Shown: in pieces, positions 5,597 to 38,994 of the stretch
How the letters are laid out: every line of letters begins with the position of its first letter
How positions within the stretch are numbered: position 1 is the stretch's first letter
NCBI GenBank assembly: GCA_973895155.1
Contig: OZ316899.1
Coordinates: forward strand, 11,471,775-11,535,774
DNA length: 64,000 bases
Origin: Marsupella aquatica
Lineage: Eukaryota > Plantae > Marchantiophyta
Direction: 5' to 3'
Position numbers and translations under genes: made by a program
The notes under the pieces: model-generated
Database searches by the model: none
Told to the model about the DNA's origin: nothing
The model's input: the letters and a program-made list of their open reading frames with translations, nothing else

Positions 5597-5602
5597 TAAA
5601 TA
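5597..5602 (-). promoter_or_regulatory. TATA-like box (TATTTA) of the family A LTR, downstream of the LTR ORF
   Basis: Positionally matching boxes at 19914-19919 (-), 47275-47280 (+) and TATATA at 36059-36064 (-). Confidence 0.5.
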
Positions 5603-8383: not shown

Positions 8384-8797
8384 TCAAAAAGGCGAGCGGA
8401 TGGCAGCGTCCGTGAATTCCAAAAAGGTAAACGTGAGCGACTGGCCCGCAGTGCCATCGGCTCCTCTCTTATGGGGGTGCCCGGACGAGCCCGAGCGTGA
8501 GAAGGTCAGGCCGTTTGGTCATTGATAACGAGCTGAAGTCGGCGTCTCGGTCCAAGCGTGATTCTTCTAACTGATTTTTACTCCGCTGCCGCCACCGTAC
8601 CTCGGTCGCGCGTAATAATCCCTTTCCTGAACTTGTAATTATTCGGTTATCTTAACCTACTCCTAATCTAATCATAATGGCAACTTGACGGCAATACGTG
8701 CTATTCTACGCTATGGCTAATGACCGTATAAGTCCTAATCTATGACCTGGGTTCGGTCAAGTGACACGTTACCCGTGTCACAATAATACCGCTGGCA

Positions 8798-10661: not shown

Positions 10662-13600
10662 TGTAATAGAGGGGTTAAGCCCTTAAGGATATAAAAATTA
10701 TCTAATATGAAAAAAATGGTTTTCAATGACCATGTTGAGGACCTTTAATAGCTATTTAGGCATCTTTGAAGTATATTAAGCTTGAATCATGCCAAAGTGC
10801 ATGTAAAGATGTTATGGTCCCTCATCCGACTCAATAGTGAAAGAAGAATAAAACCATCAATGGATTGGTATTGGGAAAATCTGATAGCAAGGAGAGACCT
10901 ACTTCAACCCCTCAAGGAAAAGTTTGGCTTTGGAATTGAGGTTCAATTTTTCACAAATTTGAGTTAGACGGCTAATTCTAAGGTGAATTAATTAGTGCAT
11001 TTTAGCAACAAGTAGCTCAATCTTTTATCAAGTTTGTGTTGCCCCACCTTCCAGTAGTTCATGGGAAAAATTACACCAACTAAGTGATGGAAATTGAGGA
11101 GTTATTCCATCCAGAATTTGAACCGGTTTTCATCCGGTTTTTGAGCCGATTTTTGATCCGGTTTGGACATACCATCCGGTAGAAAAACTACCATAACTCT
11201 CAAACCATTTATTCAAATCAAGATCTGTAAAGTGTGTTGGAAAGCTTTTTCCGAGGCGGTTAAGAAATATATAAAGAAGTCTGAAAATGGATTCGAAATG
11301 ACCCACTTAATATTACGAGTCTCCAACCGGTGCAACCAAGAGATATCCAAAATTTCCGGACAAATAATGGAATGAAGATTTTGAAGCGTTGTTTTCACAC
11401 CATTAGACCTTCAAGATGTCTGAATTTGGACCAATAGGAAGTATGATCCATGGCTAAGGACCTTACCCAATCAAAATGGTTGGATAAGTATGAAAGGATA
11501 CTATGAAAATATATACCCATTCATTGGAAGATGGAGAGACTAGATAGTCAAATTCTTATTACTCTAGCACTCCTACATTTTACCTACACCAATGGACACC
11601 ATCTCAAGACCTCATTTTTGGAAACTTTTCACTTTGAAACCAAGAAATATACTACCTGCCTCCCATTTACTACTACCTTTGGAGGTGTCACTTTCATGCC
11701 AAACCCTCTCAACTCCATTGACCCAGCAGTAGACCCCACATGGTGAAGCCTGACACTTAAACTCCCAAATAGTAAAAAGTTATTCAATCCGGAAGTTGAA
11801 CCGGCTTCCCATCCGGTTTCCCACCCGGTTTCTGATCCGGTTTTGTGTTTATGGCCTTATAAAACTTAGTATAGGAAGAATTAGACCTTGAATTTTTGCT
11901 AAGCACTTTATCTCATAGTCTAGTTTCATACTTTAGCATTACTTTTTACTTTTACACTTAGGTTAGGAATTGAAGAGGCATACCTCTTCAACTTTTGTTT
12001 AGAGGAGACTTTTCCCTAAAGTATAAGAGGGAAAGTTTCCACCATTTTACTCACACTTGCATTTCACTTCTGAAAGTCTCCTTCTTTGAAGAGAAGTAAT
12101 AGATTCATATTATCTTTGGTAATCTATGACTTGTGTTTGGAATTTAGTGCGTGACCATACTTGCTAAAATTTGTTTGATGTGACTAGCAATGCCTTGCCA
12201 ATGTTCAGATTGACTGAAAATGCATGCTTGAGATCATGCAAAGATCTGAATTAACTTGAGTATTTGGAATACTTATCAAGTATTTTTGGAAGATGCACCA
12301 GACGAGAACTCACAATTACCATAGATCCAGAAGAGCAATCTGGAGAGTTGATAAAAAGAGGAAGCTTGTTCGGAGTGATTAGTACCGCCTTGTTTTGACT
12401 TGGCCATAAAGTTAATATGGACTTACTTCCATATATCTTTTACAAATTCTTAGATGGTTGGCTTTAAAGATGAGCTTTAGGCATCAGCCTAATTTAGTCA
12501 GACTCTCTGTTGACTCTTAATTGTGCCTAACTTAGTCATAGATTGCTAAGTGGCGAGAGGAGATGAGACATTTGAGGCTCACCTAACCCTATCTTTACAC
12601 TTCCGGCTTTTGGTTGTTTTCTTATATTTTTTTATTTTTATTTTTTTAAAATTTCATCTTTATTCCGCGTGAACCCCACGGATGAGGAAACCAGCAGGCC
12701 CAAGGCAAAAGGGCCACAAGGCCAAAAAGGACAACAACAGATGTATCCCTGCATACCAGAGGGGAACAACACCACAAGACCAATCCCGAGCCAATTCAGG
12801 AGCTAAGCAATGATCTTAATACTCCATGCTACAGTGTTCAGCCAAATCAGCACATGATTAAATCATCATATGAACAATAGAGCATCGAAGTATCTAAATG
12901 GGTCCCTACATTTGGTGAAGATCATTCACCGTCATGATCCTGTCAGATTCACTGGTCATTGGGATGTTAGTTTCTGTACCCTACCCCTAAGTAGCCTACG
13001 TTGCTCTGCCTCCACCATAGTCCTAGCCTGGGAAAGCCGCCCAATCTTATGGCCAGAGCAAGACGAAGCAGCCACAGCCGACAGGTGATCAATAGTCTCA
13101 GTGCAGATATTAATCTGATCAAAAATGCCGTTTCTGGTCCAATCAAACGTCTGGCCATTCCTGGCAAGCCACAGGGACCACAAAGTTTGGTACATCAAGA
13201 AAACCTGTAACGTATGCAGAGGGGTCTTCCCCTGCATCGACAATAGGAGATGCACCAAACCAAGGGCCCGGTTAAATAATCTCCCATTCAGCCAGCCCTG
13301 CATTACCAGCCAGCAAGCCCCTGCATGGCGGCAGTCAAAGAAAATGTGCGGGATAGTCTCCACCGCACCGGAGCAGAGTGTACATACCCCATCAGACTTC
13401 CCAATCCTCAGAGCTTTGGAGCCAGAAAATAAACCCTGGGCAAGGATGCGCCATAAGAAGGTTCGGGCACGAGTGGAGAGATCTGCAGTCCATATAACCT
13501 GCCAGACCTTACACCATTCAATCTCAAGCAAGTTCACATTCCAGATCCTGTTAAGCCTGCAGAAATCAGATCCCTTGGGTCTTAGCAACTCAAACACCCT

Positions 13601-14080
13601 GAGATTGGGAAGCCCAAATTTAGTCAGGGGCACACTGTCCTTATCAATCCATCTCCATAGTCTTGCCCCTGAGTCCCTAGTTGTTTCTCTGCAGATAGAT
13701 CTGTGAAGAGTGGCAATAAAGGATAGACAAAATCTCCTATCGTCTTCCGGTAGACCCCTCAGTCTGAGCATCTTCTCATTCATATCCATCCACTGATTAT
13801 TCAGAGCAGACCGCAAATCGTTGACTTTCCTGTTTTCTTATATTTTTAGAATTTATTATTGCACTGTTGATGATGCAAACATCACAATACCTGAGGATGT
13901 ATTAAAAATTCTTCCACTTGACCTAAGCATGTCGGTAAAGGCTTGAAATCTGAGATAGGTTAGCTTAACTATCTCAAAGTATGTTAATACAATCTTTTAG
14001 GTCTCACAAGCTCTTAACGGAAACAAACTCTGGTTGTTTAAGAGGAAAGTAGTTCATATTTCCTTAAACCCTACTCTACA
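10662..14080. mobile_element. AT-rich solo LTR (about 2.2 kb without the nested LINE)
   Basis: TGTA...TACA termini and an exact 5-bp TSD GGCAG at 10657-10661 and 14081-14085. No internal gag or pol. Confidence 0.88.
12632..13830 (-). mobile_element. 5'-truncated L1-type LINE (ORF2 C-terminus with zf-RVT)
   Basis: ORF 12956-13816 has WTADLSTRARTFLWRI..CTLC..ETIPHIFFDC. There is an A-rich tail and an about 17-bp TSD, TGTTTTCTTATATTTTT, at 12615-12631 and 13831-13847. Confidence 0.9.
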
Positions 14081-14085
14081 GGCAG

Positions 14086-15300
14086 CTCACATAATGGTCT
14101 GCAACAAAGCCATGACCGAGGCCCAGAGGAAGGAGCGGGCACTGAAGGATGAGATCAAACAATGCCACAAGGCCCTCCATCAGAAAAAAGCCAAACTTGA
14201 TGAGACCTACAAGGGCATCGACAAGTTAAAGGAAGACCTTGACAATAGGTCGACCAACTTTCAAGCCGAGCTGCATAAGAAGGATGACATGCTTGATCAC
14301 CTACAAGAAGATGAAGAAGATCAAGTTTGATGTTGTCCATGAGCTCAACGCGGAGCTAAAAGCAACCCAAGAGGAGAGGGCGGCCTTACCAAAGGAGTTC
14401 GACGAGAACATGGCAAAGTTGGAGCAAGCTTGCGGGGATTTAGACGAGACCCTGGTGGAATTGGAGGACGCCGCAGAAAATAGAAAATCTGTAGAGGCGG
14501 GCGGACAACCAAACCGAGCGGTTGAAGAAGCAATCAGAGGAGCTAAATCGGCTGGCCGCAACAAGTGGACCCCCGGTGGCGGCAACAGGGTTGCCAAGCG
14601 TGGTACTGACCAAACGACAAGCCATGGTACCCTCACCTTTGCCGGAAGTAAGTGGCAAGGGGAAGGCACCAGCTGCTTGGGAGGGGAAGGACAAAAAGTG
14701 GAAGCCTTCCGGGTCAAGGAGTCACACTGTTTGTCAGGCCACCGTGGCTGAGGTGGAGAGCATGGCACCGGCCTTATGCGAGGTAGTGGCTGTCAAGGTG
14801 GTAGTCTTGGAGGTAGGCCAAGAACACCGGTTGGGGGAGGCCATGACAAGCATTGACTCAAGGTTGCCAACCATTGATTGGCATCAACCGCAACCTTGGG
14901 AGGACAAGACACCCCGACTCATAGAACGAGCCTATGAGGAGGACCACTACGGCAGGGTAGCCAGCACCGGGAGGGACAGTGTAGGAGCCGTAAGGGTGGA
15001 CCCCCATTGGCAAAAGCCGGGCAGGCAGAAGCCGAGGCCGAGGTAAGGGTGGGGCCCGGTTACGCCAAGGATGGGTTGACCCAGTCAGGAGTGGGTAACC
15101 TGTCAGAGGACGGGACACCTACATTGGCCGTCAAGGAAGGATTGGGGGCGTCCATTGAGGGTCAGCCACCGGCGTCACGACGGTGGAAGGGCGCCGTCCC
15201 TTTTAGGGAGGGCGAACTTGGAGGTAGGAGGCGTGAGTGGGCAGAGCGGGCACAGACCTCAAGATTTAGAATTAGGATCAGGACCAAGAAGCGGCCCTGA
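14086..15300 (+). pseudogene. Family B LTR-encoded protein, coiled coil and C-terminal tail (continues after the insertion)
   Basis: KKTEA|AHIMVCNKAMTEAQRKERALK joins across the GGCAG TSD. It aligns with family C EETHIAANNRAMAETQRRERALK. Confidence 0.82.
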
Positions 15301-16310
15301 AACTTAGATTAATGGGATTGCGGATCCACTAGTAAGAGCAACACTTGTGCTCTTGCCCCGTTGTACATAGGTAGATTCCACTTATCGGTAGATTTGGCTT
15401 ACGCAGCAAGGAAATAGGTAGGTACGCTGTCGGGATAAATACCTGGGTAGCGGGGACCCCAAGGCCTTCTTCTTAAGCAAGTTTTTAGTGCACCAGCAAG
15501 GCTGGGATCAATTAGTAAAGAGAAGCTCTTGGTTAGTTATGCTCTGACCCTTGTGTACATTCATGTTTCCTCATGCCTAAGAGCTGAATAGAGTTGGCCT
15601 TCGGGCTTAGTTTGCAGACCTTGTGTATGAGAAGTACTCCTTGTATGACAATGGCATGGCATACCTTAGTCAGTAGGAGTCATCTTTCTAATTGTGTGTC
15701 GCACCAACTTGTGTGAAGAGTGCCCACATCAACCAAAGAGACAAAGGAAGTTTAGAAGCAGGGAGAGTTGGATGTGTTGAGCTGAGAGGGATCTTAGCGG
15801 CTACCCAAGCCGATTGGGCATCATTCTAGGGGTAGAATCCAAACATACCTAAAGGGAGACCAATAGAAGAGAGTAAGGAGAGGCCTAGAGTAAGTTGGGT
15901 GCATATCTCATGACCCGGTGAAGGATCTGTCCAGTATATGTGGTTAAAAGTAGAGAAGAGTTAGCAGCATCCCGTGCTGATAAACCGCGGAACCGGCCTT
16001 GGCAAGCAAGAAACCGGTGGGAATCGGCTTGTTCAAGGAGGGTTCTTGGATTTAGAGAGCCATGGGACACCCACAGGCACACACCCACTATCTTCGCCAT
16101 TTTGGGCGTCGTCCCACAAAAGAGGAAACGAGTCGGCCAAGTAAGCATCAATCGCGGAACTCGACTACCTTAACACTTAGCTCCGGCGTTGCCCACTCCA
16201 ACGCCAAGCTCCCTTATGGTCCAGGCCCAGATAGGCCATTCGGGGAGGAATTAGCATGGGAAGACTTGTGGGCGATGAGATGTGGCACTGGCAAAGGCAA
16301 AACGCCAAGC

Positions 16311-17617
16311 TGGTGACACACACTAAGGACTTAGGCTAACCGAGAGCTGGTTGGGTCAAGGGGAAAAGAGGCCGGGCTCAAGGTTGACCGTCCAGACCCC
16401 TGGATGGACTTTGAGTTCAGAGGGCTTGAGTGTGATCTCCTCTTGGGCCCAAGGCCAATGGGGTTGATGCCATGGGCGACGGACGCTTGGGGCGTGAGTT
16501 ATGGCCCGATCCGAGTTTGGCCGATCGGGGACCCCAAGCGGAAATGAGACCTGAGGGCCTAGGCATGAGCACTGGGTCGGCCCGATCATAACAGGCTAAG
16601 GCACTCCGCTTGCGGACGCCTAATGAGAAAGTTATGGGTGTTGCCAGTTGGTTGCGCGCCCAGTATGCGAGATAGGGTCTGGGTTGGGGGCCAGAAGTCC
16701 AAGGACCAAAGCTGGTCCGGGGGTGGCAGGTCTCCAGAAGCATATATGAGGGGAGTGGTGTCTCCTTGTGGGCTAAGGGCGAGCCAAAGTCGTGAGCCGC
16801 GGCGGTCGCGACACTAAGGGAAACCGCCAAACGGAAACGGTGATATCTTCCCAACGGGAAGTCCATTGGAGGACTTCTTGGGTGCGTTGGAAAGCTCTTG
16901 AGAAGGGCTATGCCCTCCTGAGCTCAGCTGGGTCTGGGTGTACCATGGGTTTGCGGGGTTTGCGGGTGTTAACTTGCCGACTTGCCAAATCCTACCGAAC
17001 AGCAGCCAAGCGGCGTTCAGTCTCCCAAGGGAGCTTGCATTGGGGAGAGGCCAAGTAGGTGTGGAGGTTGAGCTACAAGAGTGCTCGGTCCCTAGGCCTT
17101 CAGTGAGGCGAATCGAGAGTTGGTTGCTAGAGTCGGGGCCATTCTGGTCCCGACGTGTTGGGACAAGCTTTGATATTTGGGCCATGAGCATGTCCCGGGG
17201 TCAGGGCGGTCAGTTGGTGATGGATAAGTACAAGGGGGAACCCGGGCCGCGCCCAAGGAAGGAGCTGTTTTAGACAAATAGTGGGCGTGGGTTCTGGTTC
17301 CTGCTTATGGCATCGGGAGGACCTATGTTGACCTATTTACCAATGTCTGTTGAGCTTGAGTTAGGATGCTAGACTTGGCGAGTTCTAGATCTTGAAGGGT
17401 TACTTACCGAGGTGCTTGGTTGCTTGTACAGACAGTGAGGACCGTTGAGTAGCGGTCGCGTTGGAGAGCAAGTGCGGCTTTGTATGGGAGGGGCCGCTAG
17501 TGGTGCAAGGGGCACTAGGGTGCTTACTCGAGGTATTCCGTGGAGACATTCGGGCACCGGGGGCACTTAGGCGTGAGTGTTGGGATTGGTGAGGGCGCTA
17601 GGTGGCTAGGTCCACCA
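16311..17617 (+). mobile_element. Chromovirus 5' LTR (start position uncertain)
   Basis: TGGTG...CACCA termini. 16713-17617 aligns with 45277-46205. Followed by a tRNA-iMet PBS. Confidence 0.7.
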
Positions 17618-17621
17618 CTTG

Positions 17622-17632
17622 TGGTATCAGAG
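17622..17632 (+). promoter_or_regulatory. PBS, tRNA-iMet (TGGTATCAGAG)
   Basis: Canonical plant Met-i PBS, 4 nt after the LTR end. Confidence 0.88.
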
Positions 17633-17835
17633 TGATTGCTGGCATAGACACCAGGCCGGGGTGGTGCTAAGTTGGAATCCAAAAATCTTAACAGATTTTT
17701 GCGGGGACTTAGTGCTTCAACGTGCCCTGTGGGTCGACTGCGGGCAGATTCGGTCGTTGGGAACATGGCTAAAAACACTCGATCAAAGAGTGGAAAACAG
17801 GCTCCCCCTGCCAAGGGGAGAGCCCAAGTTCAAAA

Positions 17836-18515
17836 TGAATAGAAGGAGGACGGGTCAACTTCCCTAGATGAACATTACAAGCAGGACAACGAAGACATGG
17901 CGGCCGAACCGTTGACCGCCGCAGCAAACACGTCAAGTGCAGAGCGCCATCAACTTAAAGGGAAGGAGGTGGCCAATCCTTCAGAGGACGGGTCGGACAA
18001 TGACGGCTCCAATGCGGATGGAAGTGACGACGATGCAGAAGCTGAATTGGAGGAAGAGGGTCAAGACCCAGAGGAGGAACTGATCCCAACCTTGAGAGGG
18101 TTGGATGCAGAACCAGAGGATGATGTCGAGTCAGACGTCATCATGGATAATTTGACCAAGCAGAACCAGGGCAATGCGGGTGATGCCTCAGTCCCGGGAG
18201 GTCATGGTGCTTGCAAGATGCGGGGGGTGTTACCAAAATCCACAAGAGAACCTAAGGATAGGCGGGCCGCAAAGGAAAGACGGTTGGAGAACCATCCTCA
18301 TACAACCCGCAAGGGCCCAACCGCTGACGACGGTTTGGGTCCGTTGACTTAAGACCAACGACTCATTTATGAGCAGTTGGAACACAACAAGGGGGCCCAA
18401 ATTAAGTACTTAATTAGTCTGGGTAGTCAGAGTGCGACGCGTCCTGAGGGGGGAATGGTAATTGGACGGAGTATGTTCCAAGTGAACCAGCTACCGAGGG
18501 TATAACGACCGTGAC
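17836..18515 (+). pseudogene. Probable N-terminal part of chromovirus gag, truncated
   Basis: Acidic low-complexity ORF 17897-18352 just downstream of the PBS. Called from position only; no diagnostic motif. Confidence 0.45.
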
Positions 18516-19238
18516 AGGAAACTGTAAAAAGCAAAAACTAAATAGGAAAAATGTTTGAGAACAAGACACACAAAGATTGCCAAGATAACATGTAAAATAG
18601 AAGATTCTTAAAATCAATGCTGTCAATATGCACAACTGGACTTGCCCCTTATATTTCAGAGACAAAATTTTGGTCCGAAGTTGATACTTTTGGTCAAGGT
18701 TAAAAACTCAACTACCTGAAATCCCACAAAAACATACAAAGCATCCCATCTTCTGTCTTCCAAAAAACATATTCGAATGAGTGAGTCCAAAACAAAGTCA
18801 TAAAACCAATGAGGATGGCAACTCATACTCTTGCTTGAAAACAAATATTTAAGTGCGTTTAGTGTAAGAAAAATATGTACAACTGATTGTGCTCGCAAAA
18901 CACCACATTTATTTAGAAAACACATTCATTTACTGAAAAGCTTAACATATTGCCGACCGGCTTGTCTGAGGGTAATACAATGGAAAATCCTCACGAACGA
19001 ATGTGAACTCAATAACTAATCCATGAAAGAAACCCTCCAAGGCTAGAAACTCAATACAAACTTAGAGTCCGAGGGATCATCTGTGCTACTACATTGTTGG
19101 GATGATATGACTGCCCATGCTAGCGTCGGGCGCTACTCAAAACTATAGTGTCCTTCTCAAGATCCAGGATTGCACGAAGATCCACATTCATCGTCCACCC
19201 CTACTTTCGCTCTAAACCATCTTGTTGAAAACCAAATG

Positions 19239-22200
19239 TGTCACGTCGTCGGCTGCGGCCTTAACTCAGACTTCAACTTAGACGGGCACATCCCTCGTAA
19301 ATCTGAGGGTTTGGGCAGGAAGGGAAGCACGTAATGCACCTTATTCTCGTAAACTAGCGCTAAGTGCGCATACTGCTAAATACGGACACCTCCTAGGTAT
19401 GGTTTGTGTTCCGCCGCCGGAACGTACCTTAGTCGATAGCAGGATCGACCCCGGCTTAAGGGCTTCTAAGCCTTCGTGCTGTCCGCCTTCGATCCGGATT
19501 CGATGATACAGGTCCTCAACCCGTGCTCACAACCACTTACCCGTAGGCTGCACCCTGTGCACGTCTCGGGTAGTGCATTCGGCCTGGCGCTGCCACCCAT
19601 ATACGAGAAACCCACACACATACACGCGCACATGCATACAATCTCGATTTACACGAAGGAAAATGATGGGAAAGGATTTTACTACAAAGGAAACATATGC
19701 GTACACTTAGTTGACCCGACAGCCCCGGAATGAACAGGTTCAAGGCCGAGGGTGCACACTACAACGGAGCCAGGCTCCGCACTCGCCCGACGAGCTTAGT
19801 CCTACCCCCTCCCCTTGGTACTCTTTCATTCCCAGAGGTCGGGACTCCCCGCACATACCGCGGACGTCCAACTCTGCAACTAAAAACCCCCCTGCCTCTA
19901 CCGAGGGGTGCACTAAATACTAAGGGACGAGGGATGGGGTGTCCTCTCGCCAAAGATTCGCTGACTAAGGTCCTAACTAAGCTGACAGTCAGGCCGGAAA
20001 ACGGCTGTGTCTTATTAGAAGATCCTAATCTACGCAAGCTGGACAGCATGGCAGCACTGCTGTACCTAAGGCAGGTGCCTGTCCCAAGAGCCTGACTAAG
20101 CCAGTCCTAATCCTAATCTATTCCTACTCCGCTGCTAATGCCTGGCACACTTGCCAGAGCCGCCCGAATGGGAGCGGCCATCCCGCTGCCTTCGAAGCCT
20201 GTCATTGTCCGCCTTGAGGAGCTGGACCTGGTCCAGCAGAGATTCGTTCTCTCGCCTCGCCGCGTCCGTCTCCTCTACTGCCTCCTGACATGCCTCCTCC
20301 AACTGCTGGGCGTCGCTCGTCAGTTTACCCGCCAGCTGGTCCTGCTTCTCGGCCTTGGTTTGGAGCCGCGCCACCTCAGCCTGCAGCGTGGCTATCTCCG
20401 CCGTGTCCCGCTGGGCCCGTTCCTTGGCCTCCTCCAGGTCTTTCTGCCAGGTGACGGTTTGATTCTTCAAACTGTCAATCTGGTTCCGGAGTCGTGTAAT
20501 CTCGGCCTCGTTCCTAGCTTTGGCCTGTTCGGCTAGGGCGGTAAGAGCGTGCGCCTTTGCTAACAACTCATCGGCGGCTGCAACCTTGGGTCGTAGTTGC
20601 AGAAGCTCAGCCTCTTGAGCCGCAACTTCGTTCTTTAGGTACACGGACTCCACCCGGTACCGCTCTATCCTCTGAAGGGCCTCTGACTGGGCCCGACCTG
20701 CCTTTACTACGGCAACCAACTCCTGATTGAAGAAACAGGCTACCTTCCGGGCCATGAACTCCCCGGTATCCCGGGCAATTTGATGAGAGAAATCTCCCAG
20801 AAGCCCGTTCAAAAATGTACCTGGTACGAAGAGTTCCGGGTGGTCCAGGTTGTGCCTGTCCGGAGTTGGGCACGGGCAGACGTCAACACGCGCGGGGGCC
20901 GGGGCAGTGACGTCCAGCCCTGGGGACGTAACGTTGGAAGGGGCTGGAGTGTCCTCCTGCAGCAATGTCCGGTTCTCAGGAATAGCCACCGGTGGGTCTT
21001 TGGGAGACCCGGGCTCGGGTAAGACCTCCGCCGTACCGACTTCTGTACTTAGCTCGGCTTGTTGGGTTGCATCAACGGTTGCGACAACCGACCCATCCGG
21101 TACCTCCTCGGTTACGACTACAACTACTTGTGGAGGTGGGGTGGGTGAAGCTGGCGTGTCCGCTGGACTTCGGGCCTCGGGTTGGGGCCGTCTCTCCAAG
21201 GCCGGGAAAACCCACCTAGCTGGGACCAGCTTTGTAAGTTGACACGGGGAAGGGTTCGTCGATCAAACCGGGCGTACCACTCAAGAATGATCTTGATGTG
21301 GCTAGCGAAATACGCCTTCCCGCCAATGTACAGCGTCTTCCTTCGCCGCTCCATCTCTTCATGGAATTTCTTAGCGAAGTACGATGCCCACTTCCTAGGT
21401 CGATAGTTCTCGACCTGGATAACTTGGGCGGCGGAGATCTCCCCCCGGGGTTCCATCATGTGGAGGGCGTACCTCTGGAACTCCAGTCGCTCAGTTATCT
21501 CGGGGATGAGGCAGGTCTTCATCACGAACCCGTTGTCCACTGCTCCCTCTGAGGGAAAACTTGAAGATTGGTACTTGGCTCCCTTGCCCCCGGGAGCCCG
21601 TGATTCGACTCGATGGTCACCTTCGGGTAACCCGAAGATCATCTTGAGCCGTTCTTCCGTGAGGGACATACTCCTTCCCCGCAGCCGAGTATGTTGACGC
21701 GCGTCGTCATAATTCTTGACGAACTCCGTCATGTCCTCCCCGTAGTACCTGCAAGTGTTCCAGGGGAGGGAGGCGAGGTGCTTGAATCCCTGAGTCTTCA
21801 GGTACACCGCATGCTTGGGATGGAGGATGTTTTTGTGAATGTTTTCCCCCATGCGGTGCATTGTCACCTTGGCTACGGCTACCATGGCCAACGGTAACCC
21901 GGATGCAGTGGTGTATTCCTTCCTCTTCTTCCCCCGTGACTGGCTCGGGGAAGGTGATACTTCCCCATCCTCCCGATTGGGCCTGGGTAGTGCCACTACC
22001 GTTAGTAACGGGCCCGGGGCGGCCATGGTCACCATGTTGTCTGCCGGGGCCGCTCCTGGGGTCAGAGCAGGGGGTGGGGACGATATAGTGTCGGCCCCTG
22101 AGCGCTTGTTCCTCTGGGCCACCTGGTCAAGGGTGGGGTAGCCTTGTCGTCATCGCTAAGATCCATGGCGTTGATGATGGAGCGTACTTGTGTTGGCTGG

Positions 22201-23247
22201 GCGATCGGTGGTGGGGTTTGGCTAGGCTGCGGCTGAGGCTGAAGCTGAAGCTGAGCCTGAGGTTGCATGGGTACGGGTACGGGTACGGGTATGGGTTCGA
22301 CTGAGTTGGTCATGTTGGTTGATGGCCGAGTTCCCATGAAGCTCTGTAGGTGTTGGTAGAAGTTCTTCGAAGCAAGTGCAGACGACCTTGTCGAACGGGT
22401 AGTGCTGGACTCACTGTTGATGATAGCCCGAACCTGAGCAGGGATGTGGTCGAAGTGATGTCGTTGCAAGTCGATCGTACCCGGGATATTGAAGACCTCG
22501 TCCGGAAGCCGAAGCAATGCTTCCCAGAAACCGATATATTTGTCTCCGTTGAAGAAGTACCCAGATACTTCTGCTGGTCGGTAAAGCTCGCTCTAAGACG
22601 GGTAGTCAAAGTTAAGGATGTAGTGGTGTCGTCCTGCTAGGCGGATGGCTCTCTCGTACTCGCGTTCGATTTCGTATCGGCGCGGGTTGGCGTGTTTTAA
22701 TGAGTCGGCCAAGTGCCTTCTGGTAGATAGGAACTGCATCCAGAATCGAATGGCCGAGCTGGAGAGGATCGTGTGCGACATTCAGAGGAGATAGTAGTGG
22801 CGACTTAGAGCGAACGAGAGAGCTGGGGTCGAAGCTGGCGCGTGGACTGATGGACTGGTGCACTACAAAGGGTTGGCTCCCCTTTTATACCTTGAGGGCT
22901 TGTCGATCCCCCGACGTCTCCTCGACGCCCATAGGCTGAACCGCTCACGCTTGTGGTGTACCGGCCACTCCGCCGGTCTGAGTCAGCGCTTGTCAATGGC
23001 CGCTTCTTAAGTACTTTATACGGACCCGAGGGAGGGGCCCCTCCACACTCGTAACCCGGGTGTGCGAATAGCGACCCGCCGCCAGTCCGAACCTGAATTC
23101 CCCCTTATTGCCTAATGATGTCCTACCCATAATGATTACCTAAATACTGTCGTTATGCTAATAATAGTGGCCTAAGACACTCCTAACGCGCGTGCTAAGC
23201 GTAGTTAGACCGAATCACTCATTAACCGCCGTACCGGTGGCGTCACA
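19239..23247 (-). mobile_element. Family D giant solo LTR (4,009 bp) carrying the whole accessory gene
   Basis: The minus strand reads TGTGACGCC...CGTGACA, with an exact TSD AAATG at 19234-19238 and 23248-23252. Its 3' half aligns with 46273-47954, which is followed by PBS and gag. Confidence 0.93.
20135..22781 (-). pseudogene. Family D LTR-encoded protein (one stop, two frameshifts)
   Basis: ORF pieces 22593-22781, 22062-22517, 21124-22122 and 20135-21199 are colinear with the 815-aa family A protein (EFVKNYDD..MIFGLPEG..GGKAYFASHIKIILEWY; PGTFLNGLLGDFSHQ; coiled coil). Confidence 0.88.
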
Positions 23248-23969
23248 AAATGTGCAAAATTGTGAATATCATTGACTTGGAAGTCTTCGAGTTGGAATTG
23301 AGGAAGAAGGACCTGGAAATTTTGTGTCATGGAAATCGACACGCCCAAGGAACCCCGCAGAGCGCACTTCAACTTCCCAATCAATATTCTCCGACGGATC
23401 TTGGGGAGTGGGATAGTGAATTGAGAAACTTTCCTGAAATGGTCTAGGGGAGAATCAAGAATCCATGGAATGTTTTGATCACCAAGACTCATCCCTTCAT
23501 CACGAGGCAAGAAAAGACGGTTTTGAATGTCCAATGTCTCCGTCATGACACTCTCATTGTCCACGATGGATGTGGATGAAAGATCCATTTCTGATTGCGC
23601 CACCAACAATAGCACATGGCACGGTGGCCTTGCGCCCCTGCCATTAGCAACGTTCGGGACTCAATGCTCCATCACTCTGGAATTAGGATGAAATGACTCA
23701 CTTTCTTCAAATGAAGCCAAACAAGGAACGGTAAAGGAAAAAAAGTGCTATAAACCCAAAACAAAAACTCTCTGTATGAACAATGTCCAAAAAGTTTTGG
23801 GGATACAGAAGTGGATCTCATTCCTTTAATAGGCGTAGTTACCGGTGGGAAGGGCCCAATGCCAATGACGAGGAAACAAATCCGACACTAGTTGCTGTGT
23901 ATAGAATCAACAATAATTCCAACGGTAACAATCCCTGACAATGGATCCAAAGACCAGCATAAGAGACAA

Positions 23970-24345
23970 TTTGGCTAACGCCAAGCGCTATCAAAGTGAA
24001 ATTGTAATTGTCATCACAGATGGACAAGAACATAAAAGACTTGGCCAAAACTTGGCGTTAACTAAATACATAAGAGCATTGTGTCTTTCAAAAAAGGGCG
24101 ACAATTAAATTATCTAAAAATTAAAGGTTAAGAATTTACAATTTGTACCACCTAACGACGGGAGCTAATGGTCATTTAACGACAGTATTTGACGCCTTGC
24201 AACGACCACTGGAGTAGTCCGCTGCCTATCAATAGAAGAGACAAAACTCCAACAGTAACAATATCCGTGACAGACACTTTTTTGGCTAACGCCCGACGCT
24301 AACAAAAACTCAGAAAAATTGGCTAACACCTGGCGCTATCCAAAA
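23970..24345 (+). repeat. Dispersed repeats of about 22 bp, TTGGCTAAC(G/A)CC..CGCTA, in an AT-rich non-LTR segment
   Basis: Copies near 23970, 24282 and 24319, plus a partial inverted copy near 24051. Confidence 0.55.
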
Positions 24346-25309
24346 TAGGTCCAAAGAATTCAAAATATTCCCACGCATACTAGGTCAAAATAATCCAATG
24401 ACCTTTTGATATAAGTCCCGAGACTTATAGAGATTCAAGATTCAATAGAACTTGAACCTCACCAATGACACAAATAAACCAAGAAGATAGTATTTATTTA
24501 TATGTGGATTCTTGAAATTGGGTTATACTAGAATTGTGGAACAAATGCGGATGTTGAAAACTATTCTAACCGGAGGACTCTGCCTCACTACTCTCGGACC
24601 TATCGGTAGATTCCGCCTCATCGTCCACAAATTCACTTCTACAAATGTCATCCACAAACTTCCTCACCAAAAACTTCCTATCACAACCTCTCCTAAGACG
24701 AAGGCCTTTCGTTTCCCAAGACAATGTTCAGCACCTCTCAACTTTTCTGGCCGCTTTCTTTGCGTATGATGGAAGAATAAATGGTTTTTCTGGTGTCATC
24801 TCCATTGCTGCAGCAATCATTTTCCGAAGGTCAAACCTTCTCCGCATATTCCACTCCGACCTGAAAGTTTTCATAGATATTAAAAGTATATAAATGTAAA
24901 AATATCTTATTGAAAACAGTCGTGGATTTGGAGCGGGCTTACGAGCATTACTAAGAAGACTCCTCATCCTCGGATTCAGATTCTGATCCCAAAGAATTTG
25001 TCTTTTCTTCCTTGTCATCTCCAAGATCGACAACAGGAACATCTTCCTCATCTGGTTCCCCAGCAACATCCGGCTTGCTTTCTTCAGAATCAAAGTCTAA
25101 AATTGATCTAACTCTGTCCAACTTCTCTTTCCCCTTCCTTGACACTGTCTTGTCCGAAGTCAAAGTTGACTTTGGCTCCAAAATGTCATCTAGCAGAGTT
25201 CTTGCAACAGCCACAAACTCTTACCACCCTTTGACCCCATAACAAATCTACCACAATAGTCTCCCGCCACAAATGAACTTCCTGAACAAGCGGTCCAGTT
25301 GATGACAAT

Positions 25310-25660
25310 ATCCACAAGTCCACCTTTGAAAACTTCTTAGCCCCGGAGAGGCAATCAAAGAGGTCATCCATATGAGATAACGGGTACTTGTTCTTTACCG
25401 TTTGCTTATTGAGGGCCCGGTAATCTGCGCACAATCTCAAAGTACCATTCTTTTTGGACACAAATAGCGCGGGCGCCCCGTAAGGACTCTTACTAGGGCG
25501 AATGAACCCTTGGTCGATCAACTCTTCCAAGGCGTTCTTCAACATAATTCGCTCATTCAGGTTCAAACGATAAGGAGCTTTAGCTTGTGGAGCCAAACTT
25601 GGCTCCAACTCAACTTGGTGATCCACTTCTCTTCGTGGGGGTAAACTTTTAGGTAGCTTC
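25310..25660 (-). pseudogene. Inverted N-terminal piece of chromovirus RT
   Basis: [38 protein letters not shown] is on the minus strand. Its continuation YYQI is on the plus strand at about 25665. Confidence 0.88.
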
Positions 25661-25661
25661 T

Positions 25662-27660
25662 GTGTATTACCAGATCCACATGGCTAAGGGAGACAAGTAT
25701 AAGACCGCAATGCGCACAAGGTTTGGATCCTATGAGTTTTTGGTTATGCCGTTCGGGTTGTGTAATGCAACCGCAACGTTCATGAAGATGATGAATACCA
25801 TCTTTCATGACTTGTTGGACCAAGGAGTGGTCGTCTTTATTGACGACATCCTAATCTACTCAAAAATGTTGGAGGAACATGAGCAGTTGCTCACAGAAGT
25901 GTTCTCTCGCCTTCGTAAGGCTCGTAAGCTAGCAAGTGCAAGTTTGCGATGAACGAGATTCAGTTCCTCGACCATACCTTTACCCGGGAATTACGCCTAG
26001 TCAGGACAAGCTTAAGGAGATCAAAGAATGGGAGCGCCCGTCCAATGTAAGGCAAGTTAGAGCCTTCTTAGGATTTACGGTGTTCTATCGGAGATACATG
26101 AAAGACTATGCAAGGATCGCGAGGCCCCTAAACGCGCTAACGTTGAAAAACAAAGTGTATGTGTGGACACAAGATTGTGAGTTAGCATTCCTAGAACTTA
26201 AGAGGTTAATGATAACGCCGCCGGTTCTAAAGTTACCTGAGATGGGGAAGCCGTTCGAGATTTGGACAGACGCAAGTGATTATGCCATTGGCGCCTGTCT
26301 TCACCAAGATGGGCATCCTGTGGCCTTCGAGTCATGTAAGTTGGAAAATCATTGGATCACACCGGAAAGGGAAATGTATGTTGTGATCTATGTGTTGAAG
26401 AAGTGGGAGATTTATCTTAAGAACGGTCCCAAAGTGGTAATCCACACAGATAGCTTGTCGGCCGGGTACTTCAGTTCTAAGCCAAGGCTAAACCCCAAGG
26501 AAATGCGCTGGCAGATGTTCTTGGCGGATTTTAATTTTGAAGTCCGCCACGGTCCAGGGAAGACAAATATGGCAGCGGACGTGTTATCGCGTAAGGACCA
26601 ACATCGTGTCAATGGGATCACGATGCTCAAATCGAAGTGGCCAAAGGTTCTGGCCGTGGCGTATGGGGATGATAGGTTAGCTAAGGAATGGCAAAGCAAT
26701 GGGGATAGCCAAGGTAAGGTAAGGCATGTATCGTTGGGGTTGGATAAGACGCATAATGTCCAGTTATGGCAATACAAGCAGAGGCGTGTGTACATACCAG
26801 AGTCTCTAAGGTTAGAGGTTCTGCAAAAGTACCACGACTCACCCTGGGGAGGGCATGGAGGACAAGCCGCTACGTATCGCAGTATGTCGCATGATGTGTA
26901 TTGGCCGGACATGAAGCAATCGGTCCTTCAACACGTGCAAAGTTGTTACTCGTGCCAAAAGAACCGAACGGTCTATAGGGCAAAAGGAGGACTACTACAA
27001 CCCTTACCAGTAGCTGCGGCTCCATGGGAGTCTATCTCCATGGACTTCATTGTTGGGTTACCTGAGTCCCGCGGCAGTAACTCCATCTTAACAATCGTGG
27101 ATTGTTTTTCCAAGATGGTGTATTTCTTGCCTACTACGAAGATGGTTTTGGCCCGAGAGGTTGTCGGTCTAGTATTTGACAATGTCTTCCAATAGTGGGG
27201 ATTGCCGTTGCATATCCTGTCCGATCGCGATACCAAGTTCACGGGCCATTTTTGGAAGGCGTTGTTCCGGTTATCCGGAACGGACCTGACCAAGGGATCA
27301 GTGTATCATCATGAGACAGATGGCCAAACGGAACGGGTTAATGGTATTGTGGAGGACTACTTGCGTCACTTTGTGACGGCCAATCAAAAGGATTGGGCAA
27401 AGCACTTAACAATGGCCAAATTTAGGTATAACTCGACCAAACATTCGGCGATGGGGTTTGCGCCATTTGTGTTGGCCACAGGGAGGATGCCAAGGCGCCC
27501 TCCTGGTTTTTAAATCCGGAAGCTTGGCGGACGGAAAGCAAGGTTCCTTCTGCGGATAAGTTTATTCGAGAGCAGCGCCTAGTTGTGGAAGCGGCTACCA
27601 AGGGTATGACCCTTGCCCAAAGTTGGTACAAGGAACAAGGGGATAAACATCGACGCCAAG
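25662..27660 (+). pseudogene. Chromovirus RT-RNaseH-integrase (degenerate)
   Basis: MPFGLCNA, FIDDIL, TDASDYAIG, HHCC finger (H..GGHGG..C..C), WESISMDFI, LSDRD and DGQTERVN. Contains stops and frameshifts. Confidence 0.92.
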
Positions 27661-30600
27661 TGTGGTGCGTCCCATGGCTCCCTAAACCCAAGAAACCCCT
27701 CTGCACAAGCCGATTCCTGCAGGTTTTGCTCTTGGCAAGGCCGATTTCGTGGCTTAGCGGCATGGGACGCTGCTAAGTTCCTTCTACTACTATTACTATT
27801 AACATTTTATTCACTTATACTGGACAGATCCTTCATCGGGTCATGAGATACGTAGCCGGCCTATTCTAGGCCTTCCCTTGTCCTCCTCTCTTAGTTTTCC
27901 TTTAGGTATGTTTGGATTCTGCCGCCGGAATGATCCCCAACTGGCTTGGGTAAGCCACTAAGACCTCTCTCAGCTCGACACATCCAACTCTTACTACCTT
28001 GCTCACTCCCTTCTTGGTTGATGTGGGCAATCTTCAAACAGGTTAATGCGACACACAAATAACAAAATGACTCCTTCTGACTGCGTTATACCATGCACTT
28101 GCCATACAAACAGTACTTCTCATATACAAGATCTGCGAACTAAGCCGTGAGGCCAACTCTATTCATCTCTTAGGTATGAGGAAACATGACTATACACAAG
28201 GGTCACAGTATAACTAACCGAGAGCTTCTTTAACTACTTGATCCCAGTCTTGCTGGTGCACTAAAAACTTGCTAAGGAAGAAGGCCCTGAACTCCCCGTT
28301 GCCCAGGTACTTATCTTGGCAATGGATCCGCCTAATTCCTTGCAGCGTAAGCCTAATCTACCTAACTGTAATCTACCTATGTACAGCGAGGCAGGAGCAC
28401 AAGTGTTGCTCTCACCAGTGGATCCGCAATCCCACTAAGCTAAGTGTTAGGGCCGCCTCTTGGTCCTGATCCTAATTCTAAACTTGGAGATCTGAGCCCG
28501 CCCTGCCCACTCACGCCTCCTCCCTCCACGTCTGCCCTCCTTAAAAGGAGCGGCCCTCCACCACCGTCATGGCAACGGTGTCTGGTCCTCAATGAACGCC
28601 CCCAACACTTCCTCCGTAGCCACTACCATAGGTCCGTCCTCTGACAAATTACCTGCTCCGGACCGAGTCAACTCTCCATCTGCCTGACTGGGTCCACCCT
28701 CGGCTTCGGCCTCAGCATTGGCCACGGCCTCTGATACGGCTACGGCCTCCCCGACATGCTCTAGTGGTGGATCCGGTACCCTGGCTTCATCACCCAGTAT
28801 CCTAGCCTCGGCTTTGCCATCCCCGCCTTCTAGGGCAGTCGGATCCTCTGCCGTGACCCTGCCTGAGGTTGGTGCTGGGTTTACCTCCTTGGTCACGACG
28901 GCTTGAGGAGCCGTATTACTCCCTGACCCAAAAGGTTTCCGCTTCTTCTTCTTCCTTGGTTTGGCAGCTGGCCCCTTCCCCTTGCCACTTACCTCCGGCA
29001 CCGGTGCAAGTGTCTCGGCTTGTCCTTCGGCCAGTACTACTCTTGGCAACTTGGTTGCCCCTATTGGAGTTGGACTTGAGGAAGCTAAGCACTTAAATAC
29101 TGCGGCCTGTTTCTTTAGTCGCTCCGTTTGGTTGTCGGCTCGCCGCTGTAAGTTCTCCATCTTCCGCGTGCTTTCCTCCAACTCCTCCTGCAATTCATCT
29201 AGGCCCTTGCGCGCCTCCTCCTGCTCCTTCTGGGCTTCCTCCAACTCTCTTTGGGCTTCCTCAAGCTTTTTTTTTAAGGTAGCCCTCTCTTCCTGGGTTG
29301 CTCTTAGCTCCTTGTCAAGCTCCGTTACGACCTCAAACTCCATTTTATTCATCTTGGCATAAGTTTGGTCAAGCTGGTCGTCTTTCTCACGGAGGTCGGC
29401 CTTGAAGCTGGCCGTCATAGAGCTCGTGTTGTAGCACAATGATTGCCTGATAGGATTTTCCTAACTCGGTTTCCTTCTGCTCAAGGGCTCCGTGGATATC
29501 CTCGAGCTTCCCCTTCAATGCCCTCTCCCTTCTCTGGGTTTCCGCCATGGCCCGGTTGTTGGCTGCTATGTGGGTCTCCTCTGCGTCCCTTAGCTCTCGC
29601 TTCCACTTCTCCCTCTCCTTGATCGCATCGGCCAACTCTCCTTGGGTACGAGTTAGTTTATCCTTGATAATCTGATTATTAGACTGCGCGGTATCCAATT
29701 GCCCCTGCATGATGTTGAGCTCATGCCGCTTAATCCGTAGCTCATCTTGGGCTTTCTTGGCCGCCTTCAGGTCTTCTACCTCGGCTTCCCTTGCCCTAAG
29801 CCGACGGATGACCTCGTCCTTCTTGCTTCTCTCCAAAGCCACCGCTTCTTCTAATCGGCGCTTCTCCAACATTTCCCTCTGAAAAAAGGGTCCCTGCTCC
29901 AACTCCTCCCCAAAGATGCTGAGCGTAAGTTCCCCACACATCTCCCCATACTCCATGGCTCATTCTTTAGCATAGGCGGAGTGAGTAGAAGTCATCGGCA
30001 TCATCCACCATGGCCTTTGTTCCCAAGCCGCCTTGCGGATTTCTTCTATCGTGGCTGGAGGGCTGCTTCATTTTTCTGCAAGCCGCCTGATGTCCTCTGG
30101 CCATTCTCCTCCTGGTAAATCTTTCTCCCTAGCCAGGGCTGCCTCTTCTTCCTCCCTGAGTCGTTCCTGAAATTCCTGTGCCGTCTATTTTATGCCGTCA
30201 AAGCTCGGGGGAGCGACATCTGGTGTGGGAGACTCAGGGCTGCTGTGTTGGGTCGGGTCCCCTCGAACTACTCTTGGAAGCATGGGGTTGAACCTGCCAC
30301 AGGTCCTTATTCCTGGAACATGATGGTCCAACCCGTAGCCAGAGTCATCATTGTCGTAGCCTTCTACCACCTCCTCCTCGGCTTGGACTACCGGCTCCCC
30401 CCCGCTGCTGTCCTGGTCTTGCCGTGAACACGGCCGCACAGATCACGGGTCCTGGTTCCTCCGGCTTCCACGGTGAACTCTTCCTTTCCCTGTCGCGACC
30501 AGGGGCTTCGGGCTGCTTTTCCTCGGCTTCGGGACTTGAAGCTCCTACATACATTCGGACTCCCGTCTCGGTTCCGGCCTCCTTCTCTCCTTGACCCCGG

Positions 30601-30772
30601 TAAAGGGGTTTTCCCTAGTAAGTTGGCTAAGGCCGACTTTGGGAGCAGTATTTTGTACCGGTCCCGTTGCCTTTGCCGTTCTCCTTTCCTTCTCCAGCAA
30701 TTTCAGCAGATTCTGCATGCCTGGTTGTTGCATCGGCAAGTCCTCCTTCCTCGGCCTAAACACCTGCTCGAT
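27661..30772 (-). repeat. Family C 3' LTR remnant (5' part deleted) containing the C-terminal half of the LTR gene
   Basis: Colinear with 40877-44003. Coiled-coil ORFs at 29387-29956 and 28567-29439. Confidence 0.92.
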
Positions 30773-33700
30773 ATTTCTGGGTATATTTCTCCAGTAATGT
30801 TGGCCAATTGCACGGAGCCATTGGAGAACTTCATGTTTACCCTGAAGGGTCCTAACCAGCGAGTGTAAAGTTTACCTGGGAACCTACTATACCTACTATC
30901 ATAAAGTAATACAAGATCTCCTGTGTGGATACTAATTGGTTTCAATCTTTTATCATACTGCTGCTTCATGGTATTCTGTCTATATTCTACTCTCTCGGCG
31001 GAAATCATTCTTGCTTCTTCTAAAGCTTCTAATCTATATTCTTGCTCCTTTAGGCTTTCCTCCTCAGAGACTCTTTCCTCAATTGTAATTTGAAATGTAG
31101 GTATCTCAAGTTGCATGGGTACCAGAGCTTCCTGCCCAAAGGTTAAGAAAAATGGTGTATGACCGGTAGTGGATTTATAGGCTAAATTGTAAGCAAAAAT
31201 AGCAGCAAACAATTTATCATCCCAATCAACTTTTTTCTGAGCTACAGTCTTGTTTAATATTTTTCCTATAATCCCATTGGCTCGTTCTGTCAACCCATTT
31301 GCCTTTGGGTGGTAAGGAGTAGTTGGTCTATGTCTAACTAAATATTGCTCATTTAAACAACTAATTATATCATTCAAAAAATGGGTTCCTCTATCACTAA
31401 CTAATTCTAGGGGTGCTCCATACCTGGTGAAGATCTGCTCATACATGAATCGAGCCGTAGTAATTGCATCATCCTTCGTCGTTGGCCTGGCCTCTACCCA
31501 CTTAGTTGCATAATCCGTGGCCAGGATTATGTACTTGTTTCTCCGAGGATGGGTCAATGGTTTCAGAGGTCCCATGAAATCAAGATCCCACTTCTCGAAT
31601 GGTGCCAGAGGTAGAATAGGGTGCAGAGGATGCCTTGTGGATGCCCTTGGTCCTCCCGCTCGTTGACAAGGATTGCATTGTTTGATAAACTGATAGACAT
31701 CTTTGTGCAAGGTGGGCCACCAGTAACCGACATTTAATATCTTTCTAGACGTGGTTACTGGAGAAAAATGTCCGCCAGCCTCCTCCCCATGCATAGCTCG
31801 TAAGACTCGTTTTACCTCTCCCTTCTCCAAACACCTTTGAATCGTGTCGCTGATTCCATACCTGTGTAGCACACCCTTAATGTACTGATACTGTCTGACC
31901 TTCCGCAGAAAGACTACGGCTTGTTCTCGGGTTAGCCCTGGCTGTAATCTGGAAGTGCTGAGAAATTGCAAAATCTCAGGGTACCATGTATCAGCTATTT
32001 CCACAACGAATAGCTCTTCGTTGGGAAATTGGTCATCAATGCAATCTGTGGCAGGTTCACCTGTGATCCTTGCAAAGAAGTCGGCATTGGCGTGTAGCTT
32101 TCCCGACTTGATTTTTAGCTCATAGTCAAATTCCTGTAATAACAAAATCCATCTTGCTACCCTGCCTGTAAGGTCCAACTTATTTACTAGGTACTTCAAA
32201 CTTTCATGATCAGTATGAAAGATTACTTTGTACCCTAGCAAATAATGCCAAAACTTTTTACATGAATAAATGACTCCTAAAGCTTCTCTTTCTATGGTGG
32301 AGTAGTTTCGTTTGGCATTGGCAAGCTGGCGGCTTGCAAATATATGGGATGGTCCCTTCCTTTCTCATCTAACTGACTTAGTACTAAGCCGATACAGAAG
32401 CCTGAGACATCTACGAAGACATGAAAATCCTTGTTCCAGTCTGGTGCTATCATGACTGGGGCCTCCACTAACTTTTGCTTTAATTCCACCATAGCTGTTA
32501 CTCTTTCTGTTGTGGGTTCAAAGTCTGCGCCTGCCTTGAGCATGTTGGTTAATGGTAAAGCTAGCTTGGGAAAATCCTTGATGAACCGGCGGTAATACCC
32601 AATGCACCCCAAGAAGGATCTCACATCCTTTATGTTCTTAGGTTGCATGATATCAAGCCATACTGCTAGCTTACCCTTGTCAATCTCAATGCCCTTCTTC
32701 GATACTTTGTGCCCTAGCAGCATACCCTCTATTACTCCAAAGAAACCTTTATCTGGGTGTAACTTGAGACCTACCTCTCTGCATCTCATGAAGGTCTTCC
32801 TTAGATATTTAGCATGTTTCGATGTTTTCCCAAATACTGCAAAGTCATCAATGAAGATTTCCATGAACTTTCTCAAGTAGTCATGGAAAATGTTCACCAT
32901 TAATCATTGGAACATAGCTGGTGCATTACAGAGTCCAAACGGCATACGATTGAAGACATAGATCGCCCATTCTGTGATGAAGGCCGTCTTGATTTGGTCC
33001 TCCTGCCTAATCCTGATTTGGTTATAACCCGAGTACCCATCCATGAATGAGTATAATTCATGACTGGCTACCATGTCTGGTACCATATCAGTAAAGGGTA
33101 AAGGAAAATGGTCCTTTAACATAGCCTCATTCAACTTCCTGTAATCCTGACAAACCCGGATCTTGGGTTTACCATCGGGTCCAGCTTTCTTGGGAACTAT
33201 CACAATTAGAGACACCCAGTCTGAATGCAGGACTGGAGTGATGAATCCGGCTTCCACTAGTTTGTCGATTTCAGTTTTGACCATCAGGGAATACTTAGGG
33301 TTCATCCTTTGAATTGGTTGTCGAAATGATTTGGCCCCTAACATGAGATCAATTCGGTGTTCTCTTAATTTTGGGTCTACTCCTTTCAGGTCTTGGTGAC
33401 TCCATGCGAACACATCCTGAAATTCAATCAGTAATTCATTGATTTCTTTCTCAAGCTCAGGTGCTAGGTCCCGTCCCAAGTTCAGTTCCCTTCCTTCTCC
33501 TAAGTCGAGCTTTCGGTATTGCCGTGCTTGGATCATATTAATCTGCTTCTTCAAGTTTGGGTCCAATTCGGCCTCTAGCCTCTCTAGTCTCATACCTCCA
33601 TAAACTGGAATCTCGGCCGTACTAGTCGAGTCGGTTTCTCCCTGGTTATCCGTAGAGTGTCCCCTTGCCGGACTATTTGGTTTTGAAATGGTGGTTGGCT

Positions 33701-34627: not shown

Positions 34628-35280
34628 TGTCACGCGATTGACATGGGTCTTAACACCAAAAACGTCACTATGGGTGCCAAAACCATCTCCTTGTACCTGA
34701 GGATCACGAAGGGATGTTGTGAATGCCGATAAACACCAGTTTATGCCCTTAACACCAGACTATCATAGCAAGACTCTATCACACATCACCCAAGCTCAAT
34801 CCCAAGGAACCAAGGTTGGGGATCAGATCTGCGCTCATGATAGTTCTGGTGAGAAGGGGTCTTCATATCGGGCCCGTACACACAGGGCCTAGCACTACGG
34901 TGCGCAATAGGTCTATACATATGCTTACTGTCATAGGTATGTTTCTATTCTGCCGCCGGAATGTACCCATAAACCAGTGACTCCTGACTGATTCCCGGCT
35001 TAGGGACTTCTAAGCCATTGCCCCACCACTCTGCCATTCCACTCTCAACAATCAGAGCTATGACAGTCCTCACCCAGCCCGCTTCAATGCACCCGGTACA
35101 CCTCTCAGTGGCGCTGCTAGTTCCATCATACACTCAGATTGCCTCACACACACACACATCCATGAGAGAAATGAGGCCTGAGAGGAAAACTCAATTAGAT
35201 TCAAAGATGTGCACAATAGTTCACTGAGAACACTTGATCCGAATACTAGGGCCGAAGGCTGTCTCCTCCAGATTGTGACG

Positions 35281-35336
35281 TGCTTGCCCTGCAAGCCCCG
35301 TGCTTGCCCTGCAAGCCCCGTGCTTGCCATGCAAGC
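35281..35336 (+). repeat. 20-bp tandem repeat, about 2.8 copies
   Basis: TGCTTGCCCTGCAAGCCCCG twice, then a partial copy. Confidence 0.85.
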
Positions 35337-38990: not shown

Positions 38991-38994
38991 TGAA

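Follow-up and report, generated by a model that had tools for sequence, protein, structure and literature searches.

A solo long terminal repeat with a broken internal gene in the liverwort Marsupella aquatica, and a possible VANC-like regulator encoded within Ty3/gypsy LTRs

Recombination between the two long terminal repeats (LTRs) of a retrotransposon leaves one LTR between matching target-site duplications (TSDs), and the formation of such solo LTRs is usually taken to strip the element of its genes. A locus in the liverwort Marsupella aquatica (assembly GCA_973895155.1, contig OZ316899.1, positions 11,471,775 to 11,535,774; this whole stretch of 64,000 nucleotides is called the window) raises the question of what it means when a gene stays behind. 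An earlier note, made from the sequence of the window, had described the unit at 19239-23247 as a solo LTR containing a whole accessory gene that could supply its protein in trans or be domesticated. The analysis reported here indicates that the unit is almost certainly a solo LTR, read on the minus strand, and that its gene lies in the sense orientation and is broken. The fuller reading, to which we give even chances, is that of a Ty3/gypsy solo LTR whose gene belongs to a family of VANC/PMD-like DNA-binding regulators keeping their own LTRs unsilenced.

The unit measures 4,009 bp and reads TGTCACG...CGTCACA on the forward strand, that is, 5' TGTGACG...CGTGACA 3' in the sense of the element, its termini forming a short inverted repeat complementary at six of seven positions. 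As the earlier note had stated, it lies between two matching copies of AAATG (19234-19238 and 23248-23252), and no gag, pol or primer binding site (PBS) motifs were found inside it. A 5-bp flank match is weak when taken alone, since 306 of the 265,441 TG..CA pairs lying 3.5-4.5 kb apart in this window have one. The unit is nevertheless highly repeated and its edges are real, independently of this match. In three public runs, median contig depth was 115-239x higher inside the unit than in its flanks and fell at both ends, and in a fourth the unit was covered and the flanks had almost no coverage (summed contig depth is not the same as copy number, and the best run is perhaps the window's own source). 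The empty site that the earlier note had suggested looking for also exists: in run X1 a contig passes from 19214 directly to 23248, retaining a single AAATG, and it represents a related copy of the flanking repeat. Neither a PBS nor a polypurine tract (PPT) was found adjoining the unit. The surrounding sequence (17620-19233 and 23253-25300) is itself repetitive, at a lower copy level, and occurs in the contigs in several variants with deletions.

The reading of the unit as an LTR draws on relatives in the same window. Its segment 19239-20947 aligns at 71% (1,738 columns) with 46228-47954, which ends in GTGACA and is followed, 13 nt on, by a PBS-like site at 47968, putatively a tRNA-Asn primer site, and then by gag at 48084. 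The whole of this relative, LTR D (46208-47954, plus strand), comprises only the 3' 1.75 kb of an LTR, with the C-terminal part of the open reading frame (ORF), and leads into gag-pol. The earlier note had taken this homologue at 46.2-47.9 kb as confirmation that the unit is an LTR; PBS and gag do follow it, but it covers only the unit's 3' 1.7 kb and so by itself fixes only the 3' end. Four LTR 3' ends in the window align, and the same PBS-like site occurs after two LTR ends other than that of D, at 4935 and 40872.

The 5' boundary comes from a sister family, A. Its 5' LTR (LTR A, 4953-8782, minus strand, 3.83 kb), followed by the PBS-like site at 4935 and by gag, contains an intact ORF of 767 codons counted from the methionine (8239-5936, minus strand), homologous to the unit's gene in all three of its parts. 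The family-A integrase (1-1227) runs into a purine-rich tract, with TGTGACACGGG at 1228, and the same start recurs at 8782, the start of the 3' LTR (1228-1341, plus strand) being 90% identical to 8782-8677 over 114 nt. Since this start follows integrase and purine tract at 1228, and its counterpart at 8782 sits 543 nt upstream of the intact ORF, the 5' boundary of the LTR lies upstream of the gene. No extra ORF separates pol from the PPT in family A, where the integrase frame reaches the LTR start. The region 1228-1865 is itself rearranged, an inversion/duplication in which the start of the family-A 3' LTR (plus strand) leads, by way of a short shared stretch, into sequence 99% identical to the LTR end with its PBS (4923-5450).

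A second sister family, B, is represented by an element at 27661-44546 (minus strand) with gag-pol between LTRs that are 94.5% identical over 3.1 kb; both LTRs have deletions and both carry parts of the homologous ORF. Its flanks match at just three of five bases, and this, together with the ratio of nonsynonymous to synonymous substitution rates (dN/dS) between its paired LTRs given below, suggests that it may be a recombinant of two insertions. Because the homologous ORF lies within the LTRs of both sister families, the gene is placed inside the LTR in three families of the window, and this location is very probably a family trait. The solo-LTR reading, made in the earlier note from the unit and LTR D, is thus backed further by families A and B, by the depth edges and by the empty site. 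A family-B-like LTR that also has a homologous gene (LTR C, 8783-16077, plus strand) abuts the start of LTR A and is interrupted by a LINE-like piece (zf-RVT, 12956-13837).

The gene of the unit runs on the minus strand from an ATG at 22781 to a stop codon at 20135 (about 880 codons), occupying some two thirds of the 4-kb LTR. Its N-terminus aligns with the N-termini of four homologues, which makes it whole in extent. It is not intact, being interrupted by an in-frame stop at 22595-22593 and by two frameshifts, near 22090-22150 and 21235-21270. At 22595, each of the four runs departs from this copy in about 99% of its summed contig depth, and near both frameshift sites the contigs contain length variants, at lower shares. 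With one stop and two frameshifts, this copy cannot supply a full-length protein; it is a pseudogene, and that it functions is highly improbable. Thus, what the earlier note had proposed holds as regards the solo LTR, the gene inside it and the full span of that gene with its domains, and fails as regards an intact gene and any supply in trans or domestication of this particular copy. Supply in trans or domestication from intact copies is possible. At the level of the family, substitution patterns show purifying selection: dN/dS was 0.22 over 268 codons between the unit and LTR D and 0.21-0.27 in three comparisons of B with C, with values of 0.40-0.46 between the two LTRs of the family-B element. 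Observed-to-expected CpG ratios (0.86 in the unit and 0.94 in A, against 0.55 in B and 0.67 in D) differ in a way explained by age, and were not used.

As to the lineage, the reverse transcriptase (RT) of element D is closest, among named relatives, to those of Calypogeia fissa (71%) and Marchantia (63-64%). In a quick tree of 101 rows, from which one chromovirus row had been left out and in which the REXdb references were absent, the RTs of B and D fell with Calypogeia fissa proteins in a clade of eight rows (SH-aLRT 96), sister at a distance to angiosperm rows. The family of the unit is likely a non-chromovirus Ty3/gypsy family of liverwort origin.

What kind of protein did this gene encode? 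Three conserved or predicted parts can be recognized. An N-terminal helical domain (22401-22781, minus strand), modelled from its family-A homologue with a predicted confidence (pLDDT) of 88.9 from five sequences, gave generic helical matches only (best Z 5.5) and no specific structural match. It is followed by a conserved core domain of 211 residues (21250-21882, minus strand) and by a C-terminal predicted coiled coil (20176-20623, minus strand), for which the weak Pfam coiled-coil matches were all below curated cut-offs. A full HMMER scan recovered 42 homologues of the core domain at E<=0.001; the accessory protein drew no match in word-based protein searches, and neither a Pfam family, nor a PDB sequence match, nor a match in a viral fold library or IMG/VR was obtained for it. 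Among 19 of these homologues that were looked up, nine proved to be gene models of Calypogeia fissa labelled 'unnamed protein product', no other organism being named, and it is plausible that these are LTR genes mis-annotated as host genes.

The core domain was modelled from 37 sequences with a pLDDT of 94.3, and contains conserved basic residues. With this model, Foldseek placed VANC21 (9LNJ) first (prob 0.96, TMq 0.56, E 0.036), the next match having a TMq of 0.14. VIA-align, run against 48,161 chains, returned 9LNK with Z 7.8 (7.6 in a second run), rmsd 4.3 and 197 of the 211 residues aligned, the next Z being 2.6. In the predicted model, the match to VANC21, which is one of fold and not of function, extends over the domain and is an isolated first hit in both searches, and true homology of the core to VANC/PMD proteins is the somewhat favoured explanation. 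VANC proteins are described as binding short motifs in the non-coding DNA of their own element and removing methylation (PMC5735166), and as resembling MAIN, having a coiled coil and being dicot-specific (PMC13547354). A PMD-C protein, resembling the DUF1985 domain of VANC, is reported to counter Polycomb (10.1101/2024.09.27.615353), and PMD-A is encoded by a Gypsy retrotransposon (PMC5418596). The liverwort-type protein is like VANC21/DUF1985 proteins of VANDAL Mutator-like elements and PMD proteins (MAIN, MAIL1, the Gypsy PMD-A) in being a transposon accessory protein with a coiled coil and in its predicted core fold. It differs from them in having no sequence match to them, in being encoded in a retrotransposon LTR of a liverwort-type family, and in that no family-specific tandem target was found.

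The alternative that survives best, which we consider a serious but less favoured one, is that of an accessory factor with another job (a transactivator, a targeting factor or a particle scaffold), comparable to the extra-ORF proteins of Athila and Retand, its likeness to VANC reflecting an old shared fold or chance. The moderate strength of the VANC21 fold match fits this explanation, as do the long coiled coil and the N-terminal domain without match. An Athila-type Transposase_32 protein also shows a faint likeness over 45 columns (hhalign probability 1.3%, E 0.042), which does not establish homology; in Pfam, one of the 37 members matched Transposase_32, at E 0.059. Against it stand the near-complete coverage and isolated top rank of the VANC21 match in both searches, the basic residues conserved in the core, and the nature of VANC21 itself, which serves a plant transposon as an accessory protein and has a coiled coil (PMC13547354).

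How such a gene could be expressed depends on where in the LTR it lies. The earlier note had pointed to two TATA-like sequences on the minus strand, and both are present. The first, the candidate upstream TATA TATAAAAGG (22889-22881), lies about 100 nt before the ATG; its counterpart in LTR A matches at 13 of 17 bases at a similar offset (309 vs 358 nt), a post hoc comparison equalled in 10 of 1000 shuffles. The second, TATTTA at 19919-19914, is within the main LTR TATA-like box TAGTATTTA (19914-19922, minus strand), which is conserved in LTRs D and A and appears as TATATA in LTR E, a related LTR of about 2 kb. The latter (36798-34780, minus strand) has the TATA region and R/U5 blocks common to the gene-bearing LTRs and a TTAG-rich tandem array where the gene would be, no clean TSD was found for it, and it is a candidate non-autonomous target. 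The start of R would be some 30 nt downstream of the main box. That TAGTATTTA might be the VANC21 motif YAGTATTAY was considered and rejected, since the exact motif does not occur in the window and the aligned sequence in LTR E is TATATA.

The main box comes after the stop codon in the unit and in LTRs D and A, which would place the gene on the U3 side. A gene 5' of the main TATA belongs to U3, and each round transfers it, from the 3' end of the genomic RNA, to both LTRs. Since such a gene precedes the main promoter in the 5' LTR and comes last on the genomic RNA, either a promoter of its own or splicing is needed, and from a solo LTR it can be expressed only by the own-promoter route. Some 30 nt ahead of the unit's ATG lies a pyrimidine tract that ends in AG, with a similar tract at the aligned place in LTR A; it would fit a splice acceptor, and with it the splicing route fits equally well. 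Expression of the gene from intact solo LTRs is conceivable, at somewhat less than even chances.

According to the next alternative, which we regard as possible and rather unlikely, expression of the gene is confined to full-length elements, in which a spliced env-like RNA made from the main promoter reaches into the 3' LTR, solo LTRs being inert. Besides the pyrimidine-AG tract, it can appeal to the lack of a canonical upstream TATA in LTR A and to Bagy2, whose sense extra ORFs are reported with spliced RNAs (PMC7264820). It is countered by the 13/17 match around the upstream TATA in A and by the TTAG clusters found ahead of both TATA boxes in the unit. One of these clusters lies at the U3 start (23048-23247, minus strand; six sense copies, a number reached in 1 of 1000 shuffles) and the other forms a tract from the ORF stop to the main TATA (19920-20134, minus strand; nine copies, 0 of 1000 shuffles). 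TTAG, a motif picked after looking at the sequence, is enriched between stop and TATA in all four gene-bearing LTRs (unit, A, B and D), and these tracts are candidate binding sites only.

Under the preferred reading, that of a VANC/PMD-like regulator, transcription from a second promoter near 22889 would take in the gene and continue to the 3' end of the LTR itself, and an intact solo LTR with this promoter would be a complete transcription unit. The protein would oligomerise through its coiled coil and bind short U3 motifs, with the TTAG tracts as candidate targets. An anti-silencing or self-activating role of the LTR-borne protein, as suggested by the modelled fold, has about equal odds of being right or wrong. 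Several observations weigh against this reading, beginning with the pseudogene state of the unit's own gene. The VANC21 match is moderate (Foldseek E >0.001, identity 9-12%), its VIA-align Z is below 8, which the tool says can mean a common arrangement, the top match of both aligners is the same single protein, and a Pfam search at E<=0.1 linked none of the 37 members to PMD or DUF1985. On the DNA side, the counterpart of the upstream TATA in LTR A is not a canonical one; TTAG is common to several families instead of being family-specific, and at the LTR start it is enriched in the unit and E, with no enrichment for A (p 0.11) or for B (p 0.26). Moreover, no 7- or 8-mer was enriched in eight non-coding segments, and no long tandem array of a family-specific motif, as in VANC targets, was found. 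Finally, the PPT junction is seen in family A and not in the unit's own subfamily, and LTR E lacks the gene.

The two remaining explanations concern the unit itself. That it is a self-contained non-autonomous or DNA element, such as a terminal-repeat retrotransposon in miniature (TRIM), a large retrotransposon derivative (LARD) or a VANDAL-like Mutator-like element (MULE) with a VANC-like gene, is very improbable. VANC does belong to Mutator-like elements (PMC5735166), and a full-length member of the unit's exact subfamily was not seen. Yet no terminal direct or inverted repeat of at least 12 nt was found at the unit, which disposes of the short LTR pair or terminal inverted repeats that the earlier note had named as its own alternative, the TSD is of 5 bp with TG...CA ends, and the 3' 1.7 kb is homologous to LTRs preceding PBS and gag. 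Least probable of all is domestication of this copy as a host gene. Its full extent and its TATA speak for that; against it are one stop, missing from about 99% of the family depth, two frameshifts, and a position within a retroelement nest inside another repeat.

An LTR-borne gene that survives in solo LTRs is known from the mouse mammary tumour virus (MMTV), whose LTR encodes sag and for which six Mtv solo LTRs are described (PMC12548423). The present case is like sag in having a protein gene in the LTR that is present in both LTRs and retained in solo LTRs; it is unlike it in concerning a plant retrotransposon in place of an animal retrovirus, and a gene of about 880 codons with a predicted DNA-binding fold. 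Plant Ty3/gypsy LTRs of up to about 5 kb are known (PMC6317226), and the extra ORFs of plant elements are described in the internal region (PMC7264820, PMC6317226, PMC11963269), mostly from pol to the 3' LTR (PMC7264820, PMC11963269). With the extra ORFs of the OTA elements Athila, Ogre and Retand (PMD, Transposase_28, Athila ORF-1, Transposase_32), the gene has in common that it is an accessory ORF under selection in non-chromovirus Ty3/gypsy elements. It differs from them in that the ORF is inside the LTR, integrase extends up to the LTR start, and there is no Pfam match. The literature searched, of which the coverage was incomplete, listed no case of a plant LTR with a full protein gene in it, and a precedent could exist; PMC12844716, PMC10398659 and 10.64898/2026.08.24.746577 added none, and the REXdb supplement text searched had no moss or liverwort rows.

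With this copy dead, its value lies in the family, in which solo-LTR formation leaves a whole gene behind. In liverwort annotations, LTR genes of this kind can end up as unnamed host proteins, and they would escape element finders that seek extra ORFs only between LTRs. If the VANC-like action is true, it would be a case of anti-silencing by a retrotransposon, outside the seed plants, and would bear on the origin of the PMD domain from Gypsy elements or from host genes, a matter called fully open in PMC5418596. A bolder and doubtful extension is that liverwort Ty3 elements moved a VANC-like anti-silencing gene, its promoter and its binding sites into the LTR, which would turn every intact solo LTR into a self-contained cassette that outlives the deletion route chiefly used by the host and unsilences the family in trans, the VANC/PMD fold having been transposon-borne before the angiosperms.

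Other elements share the window. A chromovirus (25659-27660 and 44547-45018, plus strand) with RT, RNase H, integrase and a chromodomain (PF00385) has its integrase split by element B, its likely LTRs being 16714-17619 and 45277-46207 (87% identical). The Ty1/copia element at 54663-59683 (plus strand) has 189-bp LTRs (54663-54851 and 59963-60151) that are 100% identical, which indicates a recent insertion. A metagenome scan with a related gag-pol yielded, from 27 candidate stretches, one locus, which belongs to another family and whose LTR, over 1.5 kb, contains no ORF. The spacer between LTR end and PBS is 13-19 nt long (47955-47967; 4952-4936; about 1551-1569 of metagenome contig L001), as against the 0-5 bp allowed by the REXdb pipeline. 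The related Ty3 element on that contig has, between PBS and gag (1965-2240, plus strand), an Elf1 zinc-ribbon ORF (PF05129, E 4e-28), apparently a captured host elongation-factor gene.

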